A stretch of 9,671 bases of DNA from a virus (IMGVR_UViG_2690316099_000017); one strand, 5' to 3'; positions 1 to 9,671 are shown, counted from the stretch's first letter. The notes: generated by a model not told the origin, from the sequence alone. Numbers and translations are program-made.

Positions 1-15
1 ACACTAAATCAGTAA

Positions 16-528
16 GTTGGCAGCATCACCGGGGGCGCAGACCCTGATTATGTTATCTGGGCGAAAGAAGTTCAGGGTATTAACCGTGCATGGACTTTCA
101 GACACTGGAAAGGCACTGGAACGGTTGGCGTGATGGTGGCGACAAACGATCCGGAACGCCCGGCCCCGGATGAAAGCGTGATTAACGCAGTCAGGGACCA
201 CATCCTTCCTCTGGCACCTGTTGCCGGAAGCGGATTGTATGTATTCGGTGCCACAGAAAAAGTCATCCCGATGACGATTGCATTATCGAAAGACACACCG
301 CAGATCAGGACTGCAATAAAAGCAGAGCTGAATGCACTGATGTTACGGGATGGTGTGCCAGAGGGGCGTATGTATCTGTCCAGAATCAGTGAGGCCATCA
401 GTTTGTCTGCTGGTGAAGTGGCCCACCGGTTAATCGTCCCTTCATCGGATATTGACCTGGGGGAGACCGAGCTTCCGGTGCTCGGCGAGATCACCTGGCA
501 GGCTTATGACCCGGCAAGGAGTAAATAA
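16..528 (+). CDS. Baseplate J-like protein (Mu gp47 / P2 gpJ family), 3' portion only; upstream continuation blocked by in-frame TAA at 13-15
   Basis: Frame 1 is open from 16 to TAA at 526-528. The translation (…VQGINRAW…GTGTVGVMVATNDPERP…LGEITWQAYDPARSK) reads like a baseplate J C-terminal region, and it sits directly upstream of a gp48/DUF2313-like gene as in Mu/e14-type tail clusters. The internal GTG at 130 is the ORF-track start but gives a product too short for this family. Stop overlaps the next start (TAATG). Confidence 0.55.
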   Translation, partial: VGSITGGADPDYVIWAKEVQGINRAWTFRHWKGTGTVGVMVATNDPERPAPDESVINAVRDHILPLAPVAGSGLYVFGATEKVIPMTIALSKDTPQIRTAIKAELNALMLRDGVPEGRMYLSRISEAISLSAGEVAHRLIVPSSDIDLGETELPVLGEITWQAYDPARSK

Positions 529-1118
529 TGGATTCGTTACAGGATGATTATACAAAGCTGCTGTACGGACTGATGCCGCCGGGGCCTGCATGGTCAGATA
601 CCGACGGTGTACTTGACGGTCTGGCACCATCGCTTGTGCGTGTTCACCAGCGGGCTGATGAACTGGTGATTGAAATCGATCCCGGTCAGTCCACAGAGCT
701 GATTGAACGTTATGAAGAATTGTATGGTTTACCTGATTCCTGTTCCCCTGTCGGAACCCAGACATTACGCCAGCGTCAGCAACGTCTTGAAGCAAAAGCC
801 AATGTGGCTGGTGGCATAAATGAGCAGTTCTTCCTGGATCAGCTTGAGGCGCTGGGATATACCGGCGTAACGATCGAACAGTTCCAGCACTTGGATGCAA
901 GCCCCGATCCGGAATGGGGAGATCGCTGGCGTTATTTCTGGCGTGTGACGTTGCCGATGGATGCCGGTGCTCAGTGGCAGACATGCACGGACGCCTGCAA
1001 CACACCGATCCGGACGTGGGGGGATACGGTTGCGGAGTGCGTGATTAATAAATTATGTCCGTCACACACCGTCGTTTTATTTTCCTATCCAGATGAGGAT
1101 GAAGATGCACAGGATTGA
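528..1118 (+). CDS. Phage tail protein, DUF2313 / Mu gp48-like (YmfQ-like)
   Basis: 196-aa ORF with ATG at 528 overlapping the upstream stop (TAATG) and AAGGAG at 516-521 six nt upstream. Size and position between the J-like gene and the tail fiber match the gp48/YmfQ family; acidic C-terminus (…YPDEDEDAQD). Confidence 0.65.
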   Translation: MDSLQDDYTKLLYGLMPPGPAWSDTDGVLDGLAPSLVRVHQRADELVIEIDPGQSTELIERYEELYGLPDSCSPVGTQTLRQRQQRLEAKANVAGGINEQFFLDQLEALGYTGVTIEQFQHLDASPDPEWGDRWRYFWRVTLPMDAGAQWQTCTDACNTPIRTWGDTVAECVINKLCPSHTVVLFSYPDEDEDAQD

Positions 1119-2145
1119 TACGCTGACTGCGGTAAAAGATAAGTTTGGTCCGGGTAAGAACGGATTTACTGACGGAAATCTTCGCACAGGACGTCTTGCT
1201 ACCTGGCTGAACAGTGCCATGTGGAATGCCATTCAGGAGGAAATCTGTGGTGTCATTGAGAAGGCCGGGATAGAACTGAATAAAGAAGAACACGACCAGC
1301 TATATAAGGCTATATTATTGCTGGTGGGCGGTGCAATTAACGAAGAGGCATTGCTGATAAAAAATAACCTTTCGGATGTGGAAGACAGGGATGAGGCTGT
1401 TGAAAACCTCGGATTAAAACCCACGGTGGATAAGGCAAAAAATGCCGTTCAGCGTGATGGCGACACCATGACCGGAGAGCTGAAAATCCGTGGTGTTAAT
1501 GCGCTGAGGATTTTCAACGAAGCTTTTGGCCTGATTTTTCGTCGTTCGGAAGAGTGCCTGCACCTTATTCCCACCAGTGAAGGTCAGGGGGAAAATGGCG
1601 ATATTGGTCCCCTGCGCCCGTTCACCATTAATCTGCGGACGGGTGAAATATCCATGTCGCATAAAGTGTCTGTTGGCGGTGGTTCGCAGGTCAATGGTGC
1701 GCTGGGTATCGGCGTTCAGAACGCCCTGGGGGGGAATTCAATTGTTCTTGGTGATAATGACACCGGATTCAAACAGAATGGTGATGGCCTGCTGGATGTT
1801 TATGCCAATAGCGTGCATGTGTTGCGTTTTCAGAGTGGCAGTATCCAGAGTAATAAAGCTGTAAACGTTACAGGACGGGTAACACCGTCAGACTACGGAA
1901 ACTTTGATGCCCGTTACCAGCAGCGAAATGGTGGCGTGCAGGATGTGCGGTATGGTTATGAAATGTATTACACCCCCGGCAGTAACACCGTTTCGTGGAC
2001 ATTTCGCTCACCTTCGGGACACGGGCTGTCAGGGATATCGATATCGGATACCGGCCGTAACTCAGCGGATAACGTCAACGGCGTGTATTACCGACCGCTG
2101 CAAAAACTGATTAATGGCACCTGGTATAACGTAGCGAGTATTTAA
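1105..2145 (+). CDS. Phage tail fiber protein with P2 gpH-like C-terminal region
   Basis: The ORF is open from 1093; the ATG at 1105 is preferred because GAGGA lies at 1095-1099, five nt upstream. The C-terminal part (…NALGGNSIVLGDNDTGFKQNGDGLLDVYANS…GNFDARY…RPLQKLINGTWYNVASI) closely resembles the P2 gpH / lambdoid tail fiber C-terminus as I remember it; the N-terminus carries an ATWLN…QEEI motif seen in tail-fiber N-termini. Confidence 0.8.
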   Translation: MHRIDTLTAVKDKFGPGKNGFTDGNLRTGRLATWLNSAMWNAIQEEICGVIEKAGIELNKEEHDQLYKAILLLVGGAINEEALLIKNNLSDVEDRDEAVENLGLKPTVDKAKNAVQRDGDTMTGELKIRGVNALRIFNEAFGLIFRRSEECLHLIPTSEGQGENGDIGPLRPFTINLRTGEISMSHKVSVGGGSQVNGALGIGVQNALGGNSIVLGDNDTGFKQNGDGLLDVYANSVHVLRFQSGSIQSNKAVNVTGRVTPSDYGNFDARYQQRNGGVQDVRYGYEMYYTPGSNTVSWTFRSPSGHGLSGISISDTGRNSADNVNGVYYRPLQKLINGTWYNVASI

Positions 2146-2147
2146 CA

Positions 2148-2693
2148 ATGTTGCATTTAAAAAATATTACGGCAGGTAATCCGAAAACCGCGGAATAATA
2201 TCAGCTGACAAAACAGTATGATGTCACCTGGCTTTTTTCGGAAGACGGCAAAAACTGGTATGAAGAACAGAAGAACTTTGCCAGTGACACCATAAAAATG
2301 GTTTACACCGGAGACGGGCGCGTGGTGTGGGTCGGTAAGGATGTGACAGGCATTGAACCCCGTAACGCCAGTGTTATTGAAGTTCCTGATATTACCGCCA
2401 ACCGCCGCATTACCGCGCCGGGTTACTGGTTTTACCGCAATGATGAATTTGTCTTTGACTACAGACTCAAAGCGGAAGATGAGCGTGATGCCCTTCTGGC
2501 TCAGGTCAGTGCCCGGACAGGGGAATGGGAAGAAGACCTGCTGCTGGGGCTAATCAGCGACGAAGACCGGGAAAAACTGAAAGCGTACCGTATTTACGCG
2601 AAATCGCTGCAGGCGATGGATTTCAGCACCATCACTGATAAATCCTCATATAACGCCATTGAATGGTCCGTCTCTCCGGAAGGTTCTTCCTGA
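2148..2693 (+). pseudogene. Tail fiber assembly protein (TfaR/TfaE family) interrupted by in-frame ochre stop at codon 17 (TAA 2196-2198)
   Basis: ATG at 2148 gives MLHLKNITAGNPKTAE, then TAA, then the same frame continues as YQLTKQYDVTWLFSEDGKNWYEEQKNF…VIEVPDITANRR… to TGA 2691-2693. Family members read …KTKEQYQLTK… here, so GAA-TAA corresponds to E-Q (CAA) in homologs. The first in-frame ATG after the stop is at 2298. Confidence 0.75.
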
Positions 2694-2716
2694 TTTAATT
2701 TATCGCGAGAAAAACT

Positions 2717-3985
2717 ATGTCTGTAGTGATATCAGGTGCGCTGACTGATGGCGCAGGCATCCCCATGTCCGGATGCCAGATTATTCTGAAATCCCGTGTA
2801 AACACCTCAGAAGTGGTGATGCGTACCAGGGCTGATGTAGTGACCGGAAATAACGGTGAATATTCGTTTGAGGCACAGGTCGGAAAATATTGCGTGTATC
2901 TGAAACGGGACTGGCGCGACGAGTACTGTGTTGGCGACATTGCTGTATACGACGACTCAAAGCCCGGCACGCTGAATGACTTTCTGATTGCTCCTGATGA
3001 GGGCGACCTGAAACCGGATGTCGTCAAACGCTTTGAGGAAATGGTGGCGCAGGCGCAGCAGAGCGCCGGGGCCGCAGCCGGAAACGCACAGCAGACGGCG
3101 CAGGATGTGGCGGCAGCCGCAGGTTATGCCCGCGCAGCAGAGCAGGCCAAAAATGACATTGATGCTGCGCTGACCGGCACTCTGAAAACGGCTAACCATC
3201 TGTCTGAAATCGCAGCAGCAGGCGAAAAGGCACAACAGAAGTCCCGGGATAATCTGGGGCTGAAAAGTGCGGCCACGATGGAAGCACAGAGCGACATTTA
3301 CGACCGGACAAAAGGCCGTCTGGCGATACCCGGCGCATTCGGCTTTGGGTGTGCTTTTCTGCCTGAAGATGTTATCCGTTTTGACACTAAGAGTGATTTC
3401 CTGGCCTGGGTAAGGAATGCGCTGCCAGGTGAATATTCCGTTGCTGGCCCCTACGACATCATCATACCCGACACACGGTTTGAAGGGGTGCTCAGCATCC
3501 GGTGGACTGATGCACGCCCTGAGACAACAGAACCGAGGTACAGAGCCAAATCCCTTACTTTTTACGGCATTAACGGCCCCATTTATCACACCCGCTACTG
3601 CTACTGGCCCATATCCAGACTGACTGGCTGGGTGAAAATAAATATAACCACAGAAGATATTATTTACAGAATCGTGGCGAGCTCTGTCTGCAACAGATGG
3701 GGAGACCCTGACATTGGCGGGCTGATTATTGCTGCGTACCAGGGAGAAGCTGACGGTGATAAAGTCATCAGACTTGTCAGGGGGCAGTCATACAGAGGCT
3801 CACGACTGGGACCGGTGGGGATTTCAGTGCCCAGTACTCCCACCGGAACGTATATAGCATCCCCACAATTTTTCATTACGGGATGTTCAGAGCATTCATT
3901 ACCGGGGTCATATAGCGCCCTGTCCGGGGTGCCGGATGCTCATGTCTCTGGCGCAATGCCCGGGCTTTTTATTCGCACATCGTGA
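2717..3985 (+). CDS. Side tail fiber protein, lambda Stf-like N-terminal domain with Ala/Gln-rich linker and a divergent C-terminal domain
   Basis: 422-aa ORF. The N-terminus (MSVVISGALTDGAGIPMSGCQIILKSR…VYDDSKPGTLNDFL…) parallels the lambda Stf / StfR N-terminus (MAVKISGVLKDGTGKPVQNCTIQLKAR…VYEDSQPGTLNDFL). This is followed by an alanine-rich segment (…QQSAGAAAGNAQQTAQDVAAAAGYARAAEQAKNDIDAAL…) and a roughly 200-aa Cys-containing C-terminal region that I do not recognise. Confidence 0.75.
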   Translation: MSVVISGALTDGAGIPMSGCQIILKSRVNTSEVVMRTRADVVTGNNGEYSFEAQVGKYCVYLKRDWRDEYCVGDIAVYDDSKPGTLNDFLIAPDEGDLKPDVVKRFEEMVAQAQQSAGAAAGNAQQTAQDVAAAAGYARAAEQAKNDIDAALTGTLKTANHLSEIAAAGEKAQQKSRDNLGLKSAATMEAQSDIYDRTKGRLAIPGAFGFGCAFLPEDVIRFDTKSDFLAWVRNALPGEYSVAGPYDIIIPDTRFEGVLSIRWTDARPETTEPRYRAKSLTFYGINGPIYHTRYCYWPISRLTGWVKINITTEDIIYRIVASSVCNRWGDPDIGGLIIAAYQGEADGDKVIRLVRGQSYRGSRLGPVGISVPSTPTGTYIASPQFFITGCSEHSLPGSYSALSGVPDAHVSGAMPGLFIRTS

Positions 3986-3995
3986 GGAATGCACC

Positions 3996-4559
3996 GTGGA
4001 AATTAAAAAAATCATTAATCCCCGTTATACCGAAAGTGGCGCAGTAGACTGTGACGTTTTTTTTGACGACAGGGACCAGGCAGTCCCCTACACAGCCACC
4101 GCTGATGATGTCGCACCGACGGGTCAGCGAATCTGGCAGGAACTGCAAAGTGGCAAATGGGGTGAGATAGCCCCATTCACTGTGACACCAGAAATGCTGG
4201 AAGCGGCCAGAGAGGCCAGACGTCAGGAAATTGAAGCATGGCGCACAGAACAGGAGGCGAAGCCGTTCACGTTTGAATGGAACGGTCGTATCTGGAATGC
4301 TGGCCCCAACTCACTGGGCCGCCTTTATCCGGTGGTAATGGCTGCGAAATCCGACATTGTACGGGACGTGATGACGTGGGGTGATGCCGATAATCAGCAG
4401 GTGAAACTGTCGATGCCGGAACTGGAAGAACTGGCGGCAGCAATGGCTCAGGCACAGGTTGAGCGCAATGACGAGATTTATCGCCGTCAGCGGGAGCTGA
4501 AGGAAGAGCTGAATAGTCTGAAGGATTTGAATTCGGTTAGGAATTTTATCGTGGAATAA
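3996..4559 (+). CDS. Putative tail fiber chaperone / assembly-like protein (DUF4376-like), phage accessory
   Basis: The ORF is open from 3936 but a GTG at 3996 has GAGGAA at 3984-3989, six nt upstream, and begins just after the Stf stop (3983-3985). The C-terminal half (…FEWNGRIWNAGPNSLGRL…WGDADNQQVKLSMPELEELAAAMAQAQVERNDEIYRRQRELKEEL…) resembles small proteins encoded downstream of prophage tail fibers. Family assignment is from memory and not certain. Confidence 0.5.
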   Translation: MEIKKIINPRYTESGAVDCDVFFDDRDQAVPYTATADDVAPTGQRIWQELQSGKWGEIAPFTVTPEMLEAAREARRQEIEAWRTEQEAKPFTFEWNGRIWNAGPNSLGRLYPVVMAAKSDIVRDVMTWGDADNQQVKLSMPELEELAAAMAQAQVERNDEIYRRQRELKEELNSLKDLNSVRNFIVE

Positions 4560-4567
4560 CAGAAGCT

Positions 4568-4596
4568 GCGGCACGTCGTATGCAGGAACGTGCCGC
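4568..4596. other. GC-rich perfect inverted repeat (9-bp stem GCGGCACGT / ACGTGCCGC, 11-nt loop) at the end of the phage block; candidate transcript-end stem-loop
   Basis: Seen directly: 4568-4576 is the reverse complement of 4588-4596. No strong T-tract follows on the + strand; the - strand has a U-rich run after the stem (…AGCUUCUGUUAUUCC). Confidence 0.4.
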
Positions 4597-4759
4597 GGTT
4601 GGCTGGTAAACTTTCGATAGTGCGAGTATTGAATGATTTCTAGGCGTTATCGATTTTACGTATTTTTTGCATGATAGAATTCGTACCTCCTCCCAACGAC
4701 CTTCCATGGCTTTCCGGACTTCTGTAGGCTGGCGGACGATGCTGTCCTCGGATGTTGTG

Positions 4760-5617
4760 CTAATTGGGTGATAACAGATCCTGTGTATGGGCGTTTCCCT
4801 TTGTGCGTGCGTTGATGCTGGTAACGGTAAACGTCATGATGAACACGACCGCGAATAAGACGACAATCGTCGGAGCTGGTGCGCTGTCGATAAAAAAGGA
4901 CAGCCAGACACCAGTCATTGACACTATTACCGATATGCCAGTCGCCAGTAGGAGCGCAATATGAAAGCGTTGTGTCAGGAGTACTGCAATGGCGCCAGGC
5001 GCAATGAGCAGAGAAATAGAGAGAATGATACCTACTGCTTTCAGCGTCGCCACAATGGTCAGGGAAACCATGCACAGCAGCCCATAATGCAGCCATCTCG
5101 TATGCAAACCGCTTACCTGCGCCTGTTGATAATCAAAGCTGAACAGCAAAAAATCCCGCCATTTTGCGCTAATAACAAGTGTAACCAGCCCGGCAATAAT
5201 CACCGTCTGGATTATATCGCCGATGGTTATCCCGAGCATGTCGCCGAAAAGAATATGGTCAAGATGTACGTCTGGTTTGATTGCAATATACAAGATCAGA
5301 CCTGCGGCAAACATGCCAGAAAAAACAATCCCCATAACTGTATCTTGCTTGATTCGGCTGTTGTCTTTCAGGTATCCCGTCGCCACCGCGCAGAATACTC
5401 CGGCGACGAATGCCCCTGTAGCCAGAGGTAACCCCAGAATCCAGGTAAGCACGATGCCAGGAAAAACCGCATGACTCATCGCGTCACCCATCAGTGCCCA
5501 ACCTTTCAGGACCAGAAAGACCGACAGCAGCGCACAGGGTATGGAAACTACCAGTGAAATCAGCAGTGCGTGACTCATAAAGGTGAACTGCAGTGGCTCC
5601 AGTAATAATGCCATCAT
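4760..5617 (-). CDS. sitD: Mn/Fe ABC transporter permease SitD
   Basis: 285-aa ORF with multiple hydrophobic spans (MMALLLEPLQFTFMSHALLISL…LKGWALMGDAMSHAVFPG…), characteristic of the TroCD/SitCD permease family. ATG at 5617-5615 overlaps the sitC TGA (ATGA overlap) and GGAGGA lies six nt upstream. Stop TAG at 4762-4760. Confidence 0.9.
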   Translation of the reverse strand: MMALLLEPLQFTFMSHALLISLVVSIPCALLSVFLVLKGWALMGDAMSHAVFPGIVLTWILGLPLATGAFVAGVFCAVATGYLKDNSRIKQDTVMGIVFSGMFAAGLILYIAIKPDVHLDHILFGDMLGITIGDIIQTVIIAGLVTLVISAKWRDFLLFSFDYQQAQVSGLHTRWLHYGLLCMVSLTIVATLKAVGIILSISLLIAPGAIAVLLTQRFHIALLLATGISVIVSMTGVWLSFFIDSAPAPTIVVLFAVVFIMTFTVTSINARTKGNAHTQDLLSPN

Positions 5618-6506
5618 GAGCGATCCTCCAGCGCTTTATGCGCACGCCGACGATTTGCCAAAAGTCCATGGGTGGGCGCAAATACAAATGCTAAAAGAAA
5701 CAGCAGTGTCTGCGCCACCACGATGATTCCACCTGTCGCGCCGTCCAGAAAGTAACTGACCCACGCGCCGAGGAAACTGGTTACACTGCCAATAGTTACA
5801 GCAATTATGAGCAGGCGGGGAAAACGATCGGTTAACAACCATGCTGTTGCACCGGGAGTCACCACCAGACAGATCACCAGAAAGGCACCAACCGTTTGCA
5901 GCGCCGCAACGGTCGAAACCGACAGCAGGGTGAAGAAGAGGATTTTTAATCTGCCCGGATGTAATCCAATAGCACGGGCGTGATTCTCGTCGAAAAAGGT
6001 CACCATAAGATCTTTCCATTTGAAAAAAAGCACGATGATCGAGAGAATGCCAATGATAGTGAGTTGCAGGATATCCGCCGGATCGATTGCCAGAATATTG
6101 CCCAGGACGATGGTCTGAATGTTCACGGATGTCGGGTTCAATGACACCATAAACAGCCCCAGGCCAAAAAAGGACGAGAAGATCAGGCCGATGATGGCAT
6201 CTTCTTTTAAGCGGGTGCGTTGGTTAAGAAACAGCATGCTGCCCGCTGCCAGTCCGCCGGAAAAGAAGGCTCCCAGAGAAAACGGAAGCCCCAGCATATA
6301 TGCCCCCGCAACACCCGGGACAATAGAGTGCGACNNNNNNNNNNNNNNNNNNNNNNNNNNNNNNNNNNNNGCGCATCGCCAATCAGCGACCAGCCTTTTA
6401 GCATCAGATAGCATGACAGGAAAGCGCAGAGACCGCCGACCATTGCCGAGACCCACATCGCATTGAGCATATATTCATAGCTGAAGGGTTCCAGTAGCAC
6501 GTTCAT
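5614..6506 (-). CDS. sitC: Mn/Fe ABC transporter permease SitC (interrupted by N run 6335-6370; frame not conserved across the run)
   Basis: The start ATG at 6506-6504 (MNVLLEPFSYEYMLNAMW…LKGWSLIGDA) lies in one frame; after the N run the protein continues (SHSIVPGVAGAYMLGLPF… to TGA 5616-5614) in a different frame. It is paralogous to SitD along its whole length. Confidence 0.85.
6335..6370. other. N run 1 (36 nt) inside sitC
   Basis: Unresolved bases; flanking codons imply the true length is 1 mod 3, so the run length is not faithful or the gene is disrupted. Confidence 0.95.
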
Positions 6507-6508
6507 CT

Positions 6509-6552
6509 NNNNNNNNNNNNNNNNNNNNNNNNNNNNNNNNNNNNNNNNNNNN
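6509..6552. other. N run 2 (44 nt) covering the sitB 3' end and the sitB-sitC junction
   Basis: Unresolved bases; the sitB stop and the sitC ribosome-binding site must lie inside. Confidence 0.95.
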
Positions 6553-7361
6553 ACCGCTGACGGTCGATGTGCCACAAAAGGGCGTTCATCGTCAGTAATA
6601 ATGCTTTCTTCCGAGTCGTTAAGTGTGACATGGCGCAGTACGCCGCTAAAAGCCAGCTCCAGGTTCTCGGCTGTAAAAGTGGTGTCTGTCGGCCCGCTTG
6701 CCAGGACGGTGCCTTTGACCATGACCGTATAATCGCAAAATGTCGTGACTGAGCCGAGATTGTGCGTTGAGACAAGCATCGTTTTGCCTTCCGCGCGTAA
6801 CTCCCTCAACAGGCTGATGATTTTCGCTTCGGTTTTCACATCAACGCCGGTAAAAGGTTCATCCAGCAGGATCACATCACCCTGCTGTGCAATCGCTCTC
6901 GCCAGAAAGACGCGTTTCTTTTGTCCACCGGAAAGCTCGCCGATTTGACGATGGCGAAAATCCACCATATCGACACGTTCCAGCGCATCGGTGACAATCT
7001 GACGATCCCTCTTTTTGGCTATACGCAACATACCCATATGCCCATAGCGGCCCATCATCACCACATCTTCCACCAGTACAGGAAATGACCAGTCAACCTC
7101 TTCTGACTGAGGGACGTAGGCAACCAGGTTTTTCTGTAGCGCCTGTCGCGTGGGAATACCCAGAACAGATATCTTTCCGCTGGTCAGACGCACAAATCCC
7201 ATAATCGCTTTAAACAACGTCGATTTTCCGGAACCGTTTACCCCAACCAGAGCGGCAATAGATCCACTTGGTACTGTGAAGGATGCATCGCGCAGTGCTG
7301 TGTGCCCGTTACGCCAGGTGACAGTAACATCATTAACGACAATGCCTGCAGATTGCATCAT
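6553..7361 (-). CDS. sitB: Mn/Fe ABC transporter ATP-binding protein SitB (3' end masked by N run 6509-6552)
   Basis: ATG at 7361-7359 overlaps the sitA stop (TAATG). Walker A (GVNGSGKST), ABC signature (LSGGQKKR) and Walker B (ILLDEP) are present. 269 residues are readable before the N run; the stop is hidden. Confidence 0.9.
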
Positions 7362-7986
7362 TATTTCTCCCTTTTCCCGGCTTTAATTCCCTGTACCAGC
7401 GTACTGGTAGTAACCTTAAGAAGGTCGATATACGTAGGTACCGGGCCGTTTTCTGTGCTCAGGGAATCGACATAGAGCACACCGCCGTAGTGTGCGCCGG
7501 TTTCACGCGCAACCTGACGCGCTGGTTTATCGGAAATCGTACTCTCGCTAAAGACTGCCGGGATATGATTTTTCTTAACTATATCAACAACCTTACGTAC
7601 CTGCTGCGGTGTTCCTTGTTGATCGGCATTAATCGGCNNNNNNNNNNNNNNNNNNNNNNNNNNNNNNNNNNNNNNNNNNNNNNNNNNNNNNNNNNNNNNN
7701 NNNNNNNNNNNNNNNNNNNNNNNNNNNNNNNNNNNNNNNNNNNNNNNNNNNNNNNNNNNNNNNNNNNNNNNNNNNNNNNNNNNNNNNNNNNNNNNNNNNN
7801 NNNNNNNNNNNNNNNNNNNNNNNNNNNNNNNNNNNNNNNNNNNNNNNNNNNNNNNNNNNNNNNNNNNNNNNNNNNNNNNNNNNNNNNNNNNNNNNNNNNN
7901 NNNNNNNNNNNNNNNNNNNNNNNNNNNNNNNNNNNNNNNNNNNNNNNNNTAAATCAGAGCATTATCTGGCGACATCCATGCATGGG
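7361..7986 (-). CDS. sitA: Periplasmic Mn/Fe-binding protein SitA, 3' portion plus one internal island; 5' end and start masked
   Basis: The readable C-terminal 91 aa (…[60 protein letters not shown]…GKREK, stop TAA 7363-7361) fit the TroA/PsaA/SitA family. The 37-nt island 7950-7986 encodes [11 protein letters not shown] in the same frame, the conserved metal-ligand His motif. The true start lies within or beyond N run 4. Confidence 0.8.
7638..7949. other. N run 3 (312 nt) inside sitA
   Basis: Unresolved bases. Confidence 0.95.
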
Positions 7987-8671
7987 NNNNNNNNNNNNNN
8001 NNNNNNNNNNNNNNNNNNNNNNNNNNNNNNNNNNNNNNNNNNNNNNNNNNNNNNNNNNNNNNNNNNNNNNNNNNNNNNNNNNNNNNNNNNNNNNNNNNNN
8101 NNNNNNNNNNNNNNNNNNNNNNNNNNNNNNNNNNNNNNNNNNNNNNNNNNNNNNNNNNNNNNNNNNNNNNNNNNNNNNNNNNNNNNNNNNNNNNNNNNNN
8201 NNNNNNNNNNNNNNNNNNNNNNNNNNNNNNNNNNNNNNNNNNNNNNNNNNNNNNNNNNNNNNNNNNNNNNNNNNNNNNNNNNNNNNNNNNNNNNNNNNNN
8301 NNNNNNNNNNNNNNNNNNNNNNNNNNNNNNNNNNNNNNNNNNNNNNNNNNNNNNNNNNNNNNNNNNNNNNNNNNNNNNNNNNNNNNNNNNNNNNNNNNNN
8401 NNNNNNNNNNNNNNNNNNNNNNNNNNNNNNNNNNNNNNNNNNNNNNNNNNNNNNNNNNNNNNNNNNNNNNNNNNNNNNNNNNNNNNNNNNNNNNNNNNNN
8501 NNNNNNNNNNNNNNNNNNNNNNNNNNNNNNNNNNNNNNNNNNNNNNNNNNNNNNNNNNNNNNNNNNNNNNNNNNNNNNNNNNNNNNNNNNNNNNNNNNNN
8601 NNNNNNNNNNNNNNNNNNNNNNNNNNNNNNNNNNNNNNNNNNNNNNNNNNNNNNNNNNNNNNNNNNNNNNN
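7987..8671. other. N run 4 (685 nt) covering the sitA 5' region and probably its start and part of its promoter
   Basis: Unresolved bases. If lengths were faithful, sitA would extend to 438 aa from the ATG at 8677, far longer than this family, so the start is inside the run or the run lengths are arbitrary. Confidence 0.95.
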
Positions 8672-8742
8672 CGACATGATATTGAGGAAAAAAGTAGAGC
8701 AGCTATTAGGCTTTGAAATGACTTTATGAGGAAAATTGTTGA

Positions 8743-8795
8743 TGGCAAAAATGGGGCAAAACGCTGTAGAAGGGGCAAAAAAGGGGCAAAAAAAG
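8743..8795. repeat. Four tandem GGGGCAAAA(A) / TGGCAAAAA units with roughly helical spacing (phased G4-C-A5-7 tracts)
   Basis: Seen directly: units begin at about 8743, 8752, 8771 and 8783; an inverted partial copy TTTTGCCC lies at 8884-8891. Confidence 0.55.
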
Positions 8796-8825
8796 AGTGG
8801 GTTATCGTAGCTTATTGTTGTCGCT

Positions 8826-8844
8826 GATAATGTTTAACATATTG
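8826..8844. promoter_or_regulatory. Fur-box-like AT-rich site (GATAATGTTTAACATATTG, about 13/19 to the GATAATGATAATCATTATC consensus) with internal palindrome ATGTT-T-AACAT
   Basis: Manual comparison to the Fur consensus. It lies in the region expected to be upstream of - strand sitA, but the sitA start is masked so spacing is unknown. Confidence 0.3.
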
Positions 8845-9085
8845 AAAAATAAATAAAATACTTATGGGTCAGATAGTTGTGATTTTTGCCCTTACTTGTT
8901 CAGGTTGTATTGTTCTTTCTTACTAATTTCTTGATTTTGCGACATTTAAAAGCGACTCAATTCGTTATATGGCATCAGAAGAGTATGCGTCATGCCGGAA
9001 CGCCCAGCATAAGAAATCTGATATAAAACTGTGGCGTGTATGGTACGGATTAGAGGGGAAAATGTCAGCACATTTGCGAAATGAA

Positions 9086-9112
9086 TCAAAAAGCCCGCAG
9101 CAATGTGCGGGC
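9086..9112 (-). terminator. Rho-independent terminator of uspF
   Basis: On the - strand: stem GCCCGCA (9112-9106) / TGCGGGC (9099-9093) with a 6-nt loop, immediately followed by UUUUU (9092-9088), beginning 8 nt after the uspF stop. Confidence 0.65.
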
Positions 9113-9119
9113 GTTAGTG

Positions 9120-9635
<516 letters not shown>

Positions 9636-9671
9636 TTAGATCAAAGGAGGAAGAATAAGCAGAAAAAGCCC

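Follow-up and report, generated by a model that had tools for sequence, protein, structure and literature searches.

The sitABCD operon as the last module before attR at the right end of a probable Rac-type prophage remnant

Does a metal-uptake operon that lies between phage tail genes and a bacterial chromosomal gene belong to the phage or to the host? The viral sequence IMGVR_UViG_2690316099_000017, a stretch of 9,671 nucleotides referred to here in its entirety as the window, raises this question: it carries sitABCD, an operon for Mn2+/Fe2+ transport with a contribution to virulence (PMC7545054), between a prophage tail-fiber module and uspF. The late tail genes occupy the + strand and the sit genes and uspF the − strand. 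A preliminary description, made from the sequence alone, took sit to be convergent prophage cargo at the integration site of the Rac prophage. Open reading frame (ORF) listing and profile searches confirmed its end of the late genes at 4559, its end of sitD at 4760, its position of uspF and the convergence of the two gene blocks, and the cargo interpretation is upheld by an attachment site that lies distal to sit. We conclude that the window very probably shows the right end of a Rac-type prophage that has decayed, in a Shigella sonnei-like genome, with sitABCD as the last module before the right attachment site (attR).

The evidence that carries this conclusion is located between sitA and uspF. 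Rac integrates in the 5’ end of ttcA (PMC4632033; PMC6379469) and is consequently found between ttcA and ttcC’ (PMC4632033). In the window, uspF (9120-9554, − strand; Usp domain, E=4e-31) and the terminator identified beside it by a terminator scan (9093-9112; whole feature 9093-9554) are host DNA outside the prophage, and uspF is annotated in all homologous loci. Next to it, at 8895-8945 on the − strand, are an attR core (8896-8938), 93% identical to the attL core of Escherichia coli K-12, and ttcC, the displaced fragment of ttcA (MSQNQEISKKEQYNLNK*), which is identical to K-12 ttcC and represents the 5’ (N-terminal) end of ttcA. The adjoining right arm (8743-8895) is 98.5% identical to the last 153 bp of K-12 Rac and features three GGGGCAAA repeats at 8753-8790, a motif count of 3 against 0.39 expected. 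The same motif recurs on the P-arm side in K-12 attL (L003 3965-3990) and in plasmid pAPEC-O2-ColV, and by sequence the repeats are probably arm-type binding sites for IntR. An att core in the ttcA 5’ end and a displaced ttcC at attR beside uspF are both Rac-family traits. Because attR/ttcC stands between sitA and uspF, the operon lies inside the prophage; of the two origins offered in the preliminary description, acquisition as a moron is therefore favored and insertion at the prophage-host junction is ruled out. The att duplication it anticipated is indeed present at 8896-8938, as a 5’ rather than a 3’ fragment of ttcA; comparison with K-12 revealed no att duplication in 4560-4760, where only a 31-bp hairpin is common to Rac.

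Relative to K-12 Rac, the sit region is a discrete insertion or deletion. Window 8743-9671 matches K-12 at 98.5%, beginning within Rac, 153 bp before its annotated right end, and the 31 bp of window 4572-4602, which belong to the hairpin, match K-12 Rac 37 bp from the start of that alignment. Since the two flanks are only 37 bp apart in K-12, window 4603-8742 (3815 real bases) represents a clean indel within the right arm of the prophage, located downstream of ynaM at a distance of ~150 bp from the att core. The two elements share the attR core, the ttcC pseudogene, the GGGGCAAA repeats, the last 153 bp, the hairpin and the host neighbors uspF-ompN-nifJ; they differ in that K-12 Rac retains pinR-ynaE-ynaM, has lambdoid stfR/tfaR tail genes rather than phiP27/Mu-like ones, and holds 37 bp where the window has a 127-bp segment (h127) and sit. 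The K-12 order stfR-tfaR-pinR-ynaE-...-uspF, as given in the preliminary description, is correct by this comparison. Its suggestion that sit occupies the place of the invertase region is not, as the difference is a 3.8-kb indel downstream of ynaM and no simple replacement of pinR. A target-site duplication flanking the indel was considered and discarded, the GACTTT... stretches showing only weak and unconvincing similarity.

The left flank of the sit module is formed by the hairpin (4564-4601) and h127 (4587-4713), which together fill 4564-4713 between the tail genes and sitD and consist of generic lambdoid b-region DNA: window 4572-4711 matches the b region of lambda (~24.2 kb), HK75, the cdtI phage and many Shiga toxin (Stx) phages. 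The hairpin has a fold energy of -27.8 kcal/mol (z = -2.7), a 13-nt loop and no T run, and a consensus terminator and promoter scan of 4400-4900 found neither. K-12 Rac (L003 26739-26806) has kept the hairpin without the 127-bp piece, and lambda and many other phages have both contiguously. The retention of the hairpin without h127 raises the possibility that K-12 Rac is a deletion derivative, so that its right end may once have held more DNA, possibly including sit.

The genes themselves fit a SitABCD set, being four co-directional genes with overlapping stop and start codons in the order of annotated sitABCD, with parts of them masked by runs of N. The permease gene sitD (4760-5617, − strand) is complete, with an ABC-3 domain (E=2e-75), and its exact protein is present in S. 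sonnei sit loci. The second permease gene, sitC (5614-6506, − strand), takes its coordinates from a homologous locus (L001) and is identified only by nucleotide identity, which is 100% to S. sonnei on either flank of the mask at 6335-6370. The ATPase gene sitB (6503-7361, − strand; ABC_tran, 8e-31) is delimited by mapping onto the homologue and includes the mask at 6509-6552. The gene for the periplasmic binding protein, sitA (7361-8534, − strand, with a nominal start), is recognized by a ZnuA domain (2e-19) on the C-terminal 91 aa, maps to L001 25567-26481 and is readable only at 7361-7637 and 7950-7986. The region upstream of sitA (8535-8731, − strand) contains the right end of the sit module (...GGCTTTGAAAT, 8719-8731), placed by comparing module boundaries with phage 21 and Perceval. 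All readable parts from sit to uspF are 98-100% identical to annotated sitABCD-uspF loci.

The N runs (6335-6370, 6509-6552, 7638-7949 and 7987-8671) account for 1077 of the 4112 bases (26%) in 4560-8671. Mapped onto unmasked homologues, these runs of 36, 44, 312 and 685 replace 1, 13, 219 and 519 bases, respectively; in total they add 325 positions to the window, and any coordinate within a mask is nominal. As the masks do not keep true length, position 8671, given in the preliminary description as the end of the sit region, is the edge of a mask and no gene end. Counted back from that edge, sitA would start at ~8534, and the true operon length is 3450 bp. ORFs listed across the masks (e.g., 6207-7361 and 7361-8677) were rejected as artefacts of the N runs. 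Most of sitA and the whole promoter region are hidden, the mask at 7987-8671 covering the Fur/MntR region. The S. sonnei loci, which are 100% identical to the window flanking each mask, encode intact products of 304, 275, 285 and 285 aa, and upstream of sitA they carry AATGATAATCATTTTCATT and AAACATAGCCGTTGCTATGTTT, a Fur-like box and an MntR-like palindrome that are masked in the window.

The same arrangement recurs in a survey of 5426 complete E. coli genomes. In 2489 genomes the attachment site is empty and ttcA directly adjoins uspF without sit, and sitA-attR-uspF is contiguous in 495; sit occurs somewhere in 2337 genomes, with 1683 places on chromosomes and 1060 on plasmids. A Rac-type right end that lacks sit is found in, for example, K-12, B and O157:H7, giving the presence/absence polymorphism among homologous phages, with a defined junction, that characterizes a moron. 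The enteroinvasive E. coli (EIEC) genome RMDEC364 contains a single unbroken ~48 kb prophage whose right end, sitDCBA-attR, is followed by uspF-ompN-nifJ, with the order ttcA-intR-xisR-early-lysis-heads-contractile tail-fibers-DUF4376-sitDCBA-attR-uspF. In AR_0077 the same sit-attR-uspF end stands behind a lambdoid J-lom-stf tail, and overall the sit-uspF block from 4572 on is ~98.5% conserved even where the tail modules in front of it differ strongly. Of the chromosomal copies not beside uspF, the two sampled are at the icd site, each the last block before icd’ at the attR of a lambdoid prophage.

Likewise, sit is carried by phages. At least 27 deposited phage genomes harbor the module at ~98.4% identity, including phage 21, Perceval and ev207, and annotated phages show the order J-(lom)-stf-small ORFs-sitDCBA(-)-~2 kb-attP-int. 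The slot between tail fibers and attP is the position of the non-essential b region in lambda. Phage 21 (OL657228), Perceval of LF82 (OV696612) and the ev207/Lambda_ev* infant-gut phages resemble the window in their 3.67-kb sit module, its tail-fiber-attP slot and its convergent orientation, but differ in having the icd attachment site, a different integrase and siphovirus tails; they are active phages, whereas the window element is a remnant ridden with insertion sequences (IS). Perceval virions have been reported, and sit is an expressed moron of this active phage, with expression exceeding the prophage background (PMC9928086). Two further moron traits are to be read with care: carriage in packaged or active phages holds for the relatives only, the window element being defective, and of the features of an independent transcription unit the window shows the strand opposite to the late operon and the intervening hairpin, with its promoter masked and above-background expression known for Perceval only. 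One record, ON032529 “Salmonella phage SPF_0923” (L007 10225-13310), was considered as an independent phage with the Rac junction. It contains uspF, ompN and part of nifJ and was discounted as a mis-delimited prophage prediction, since it runs into E. coli-type host DNA.

The tail block has a more complicated history. The window opens with the last 30 bases of IS1, its terminal inverted repeat (1..30; ACACTAAATCAGTAAGTTGGCAGCATCACC, 100% identical to IS1 ends in loci L011, L014 and L029), followed on the + strand by Pfam matches to the C-terminal part of Baseplate_J (130-528), a Mu gp48-like protein (528-1118) and a tail fiber (1093-2145); these contractile-tail baseplate and fiber genes (130-2145) are identical to an smpB-linked prophage remnant of S. 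sonnei. Further downstream, also on the + strand, are a tail-fiber assembly protein (Caudo_TAP, 7e-21; 2298-2693), a second tail fiber with a prophage tail-fiber N-terminal domain (phage_tail_N, 2e-63; 2717-3985) and a DUF4376 protein (4e-16; 3936-4559) that ends the late genes. The start of the DUF4376 ORF (3936-3985) overlaps the 3’ end of the fiber gene by 50 bp in a different frame. The closest named phage is the Stx2e phage phiP27, the end of whose genome is ~90% identical to window 31-4571 across baseplate, fiber and assembly genes; in the phiP27 record the matching block is terminal, reaching position 42256 of 42575 bp, and the annotation of the matched stretch includes no sit genes. 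The lambdoid J-lom-stf-tfa late region typical of the Rac family is thus lacking, the window tail genes being phiP27/Mu-like and contractile, and in S. sonnei J-lom-stf’ is found beyond an IS cluster. This gives the window element a mosaic or hybrid character. For S. sonnei 53G, a rac-like prophage has been reported at ttcA.

Mismatch maps against complete S. sonnei genomes, to which the window is 99.9-100% identical, resolve this hybrid into two remnants. Window 1-4282 corresponds to the smpB-linked phiP27/Mu-like remnant with 1 mismatch, and window 3315-9671, with 2 mismatches, to the sit locus that is linked to uspF in these genomes; the overlap, 3315-4282, is a 968-bp repeat common to both. 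At the sole discriminating site within the repeat, 4228, the window has the smpB-copy type, and at 40 of 40 discriminating sites in 4283-4521 it has the uspF-copy type, which places the switch in the interval 4229-4282, within DUF4376. In S. sonnei the fiber C-terminus, DUF4376, hairpin, sit and attR form one native, contiguous stretch, and complete relatives are found in EIEC. The placement of the tail block next to uspF in the preliminary description stands from 3315 onward, which is natively uspF-linked, and needs correction for 1-3314, which in complete S. sonnei genomes is part of the smpB-linked remnant. Decay of the locus by IS is continuing, as judged from an extra IS1 in the fiber gene of S. 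sonnei 53G (L031 9709-9738), whose 9-bp target duplication corresponds to window 3648-3656.

How the two remnants came to be joined is the point on which an alternative survives best. The link between tail block 1-3314 and sit could be an assembly chimera made through the 968-bp exact repeat, with IS-’fiber-DUF4376-sit as the native order, and we place this just short of an even chance. The near-perfect match to two copies with a single switch at 4229-4282 is what such an artefact would produce; an IS3-family element is present at window 3314/3315 in all six complete S. sonnei sit loci read; and the window opens with exactly 30 nt of IS1, like a short-read contig end, and may therefore begin where such a contig began. 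What speaks for a natural origin is that the two copies are inverted to each other in CP032523 and CP104423; homologous recombination between them would invert the intervening DNA and create this very junction at one end, a kind of rearrangement that is common in Shigella. In EIEC genomes, moreover, sit is directly preceded by a complete phiP27-like tail, and DUF4376 is naturally mosaic in RMDEC364, where sites at 4308-4472 are of the smpB-copy type and those at 4493-4521 of the uspF-copy type, a mosaic between strains. Whichever applies, the hybrid origin of the tail block leaves the assignment of sit to the right end of a Rac-type prophage unaffected.

A different question is how the module moves. 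The part shared with phage 21 and Perceval begins at window ~4740, which is 20 bp past the stop codon of sitD, and reaches ~8719-8731. The hairpin and h127 are to the left of this module in Rac-type prophages and directly to its right in phage 21 and Perceval, in which the module right end (...GAAAT) is followed by 16 bp of the hairpin 3’ arm (AACGTTCTGCGGTTGG) and then by Rac-type left-flank sequence, a permuted junction. In phage 21 (L004 9656-9781) the h127 counterpart is 82% identical, and an IS3-family orfA-like remnant comes after it. This permutation would be expected if sit and h127 formed a discrete cassette that moves between b regions via a circular or tandem intermediate targeting the conserved hairpin, an idea we consider unlikely: the cassette is without a recombinase, and two independent illegitimate recombination events fit the same data. 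The permuted junction is most simply explained by two recombination events that took place independently in b-region DNA.

Plasmid copies bear on whether sit belongs to the phage or is a host-side island. ColV/ColBM plasmids such as pAPEC-O2-ColV (NC_007675) carry a sit module ~97-98% identical to that of the window, but in a plasmid location, with aerobactin genes and IS flanks and without tail genes; in ColV-type plasmids the module is accompanied by 18 bp or more of Rac-type right-flank sequence. On pAPEC-O2-ColV (L008 7600-7932) sit continues into P’ arm repeats, the core, the phage-borne 5’ end of ttcA (MQENQQITK) and the 3’ end of intR, the last two being 100% identical to the K-12 attL side. 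The junction is attP rather than attR, and the plasmid sit therefore derives from a Rac-type phage genome. The attP stretch in this record is followed by a 100-N run at 7933-8032.

It follows that sit is highly unlikely to be a host-side island at the prophage-host junction, outside the phage proper. The operon is the very last module before uspF, has no phage function and runs in the same direction as uspF, all of which would suit an island; against this, the att core and ttcC are located between sit and uspF, with 153 bp of Rac right arm separating sit from the core, packaged phages carry sit, and the attP-type junction of pAPEC-O2-ColV (P’ arm-core-P arm-intR 3’ end) can have originated only from the phage form. 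That sitABCD and uspF are ancestral neighbors beside which prophages later integrated is extremely improbable, for although the sit-uspF block is ~98.5% conserved behind different tail modules, 2489 of 2489 empty-site genomes have ttcA directly beside uspF without sit, as the synteny comparison envisaged in the preliminary description makes clear, sit next to uspF without a prophage was not observed, Rac-type right ends in K-12, B and O157:H7 are without it, and the module has further locations, namely the icd site, phages and plasmids.

Several points nevertheless weigh against the reading of the window as the sit-bearing end of a Rac-type prophage. The intactness and regulation of sitA are deduced from S. 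sonnei loci that are identical to the window beside the masks. The prophage left end (intR/attL) is beyond the window; attL and IntR/XisR beside ttcA are seen in the complete relative RMDEC364. Tail genes 1-3314 are probably not native neighbors of sit in this lineage. The prophage is defective, since IS1 interrupts baseplate J, and for that reason can no longer mobilize sit by itself. Finally, base composition, by which the preliminary description hoped to set sit apart, does not do so: GC content is 0.47-0.53 in sit versus 0.47-0.58 in the tail block, and the GC and GC-skew profile shows no contrast between sit and phage DNA and no foreign-DNA signal; a composition unlike that of the adjoining phage genes is a common, though not obligatory, trait of morons.

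If sitABCD is indeed the last module of a Rac-type prophage, its spread may be pictured as follows. A Rac-type prophage would integrate in the ttcA 5’ end with sitABCD in its non-essential b region, between the fibers and the attachment site, where the operon would be transcribed against the late genes and insulated from the late operon by the strong hairpin. The 3.7-kb module, with its own putatively Fur/MntR-controlled promoter, would be exchanged among temperate phages by recombination in shared b-region DNA, passing between phages with different tails and integrases, and lysogeny at ttcA or icd would then bring it to new hosts. Under metal limitation the host could express sit whether or not the phage is induced. 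IS-mediated capture may have taken the operon to ColV plasmids, and it would persist after prophage decay through IS insertions, as may have happened in Shigella, where the carrier phage decayed and the operon was kept. Transport function, regulation and fitness benefit in this scheme are inferred or taken from the literature.

The carriage of sit as prophage cargo, or moron, in E. coli and Shigella phages is already known. Among infant-gut lambda phages, sit is the most frequent virulence or moron locus and has a Fur box (PMC6969025), and a phage- and IS-rich “PAI sit” (pathogenicity island) has been described for Shigella (Fisher et al. 2009, summarized in the review PMC7545054). Descriptions of this island and of prophage 042p3 (ROD21) of enteroaggregative E. 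coli (EAEC) 042 are, in the parts of these sources at hand, without the attR/ttcC position or the K-12 Rac junction, and our literature search found no single paper naming sitABCD and the Rac prophage together.

Relative to this background, the present analysis adds three small increments: (i) a base-level definition of the sit module and its junctions against K-12 Rac, (ii) at least one ColV plasmid copy that keeps a Rac-type attP, pointing to a phage origin of plasmid sit, and (iii) a window that joins two different prophage remnants. Overall, sit is a textbook case of a fitness or virulence operon in the non-essential, att-proximal region of temperate phages, and its carriage by phages helps explain the wide spread of sit in pathogenic E. 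coli and Shigella.

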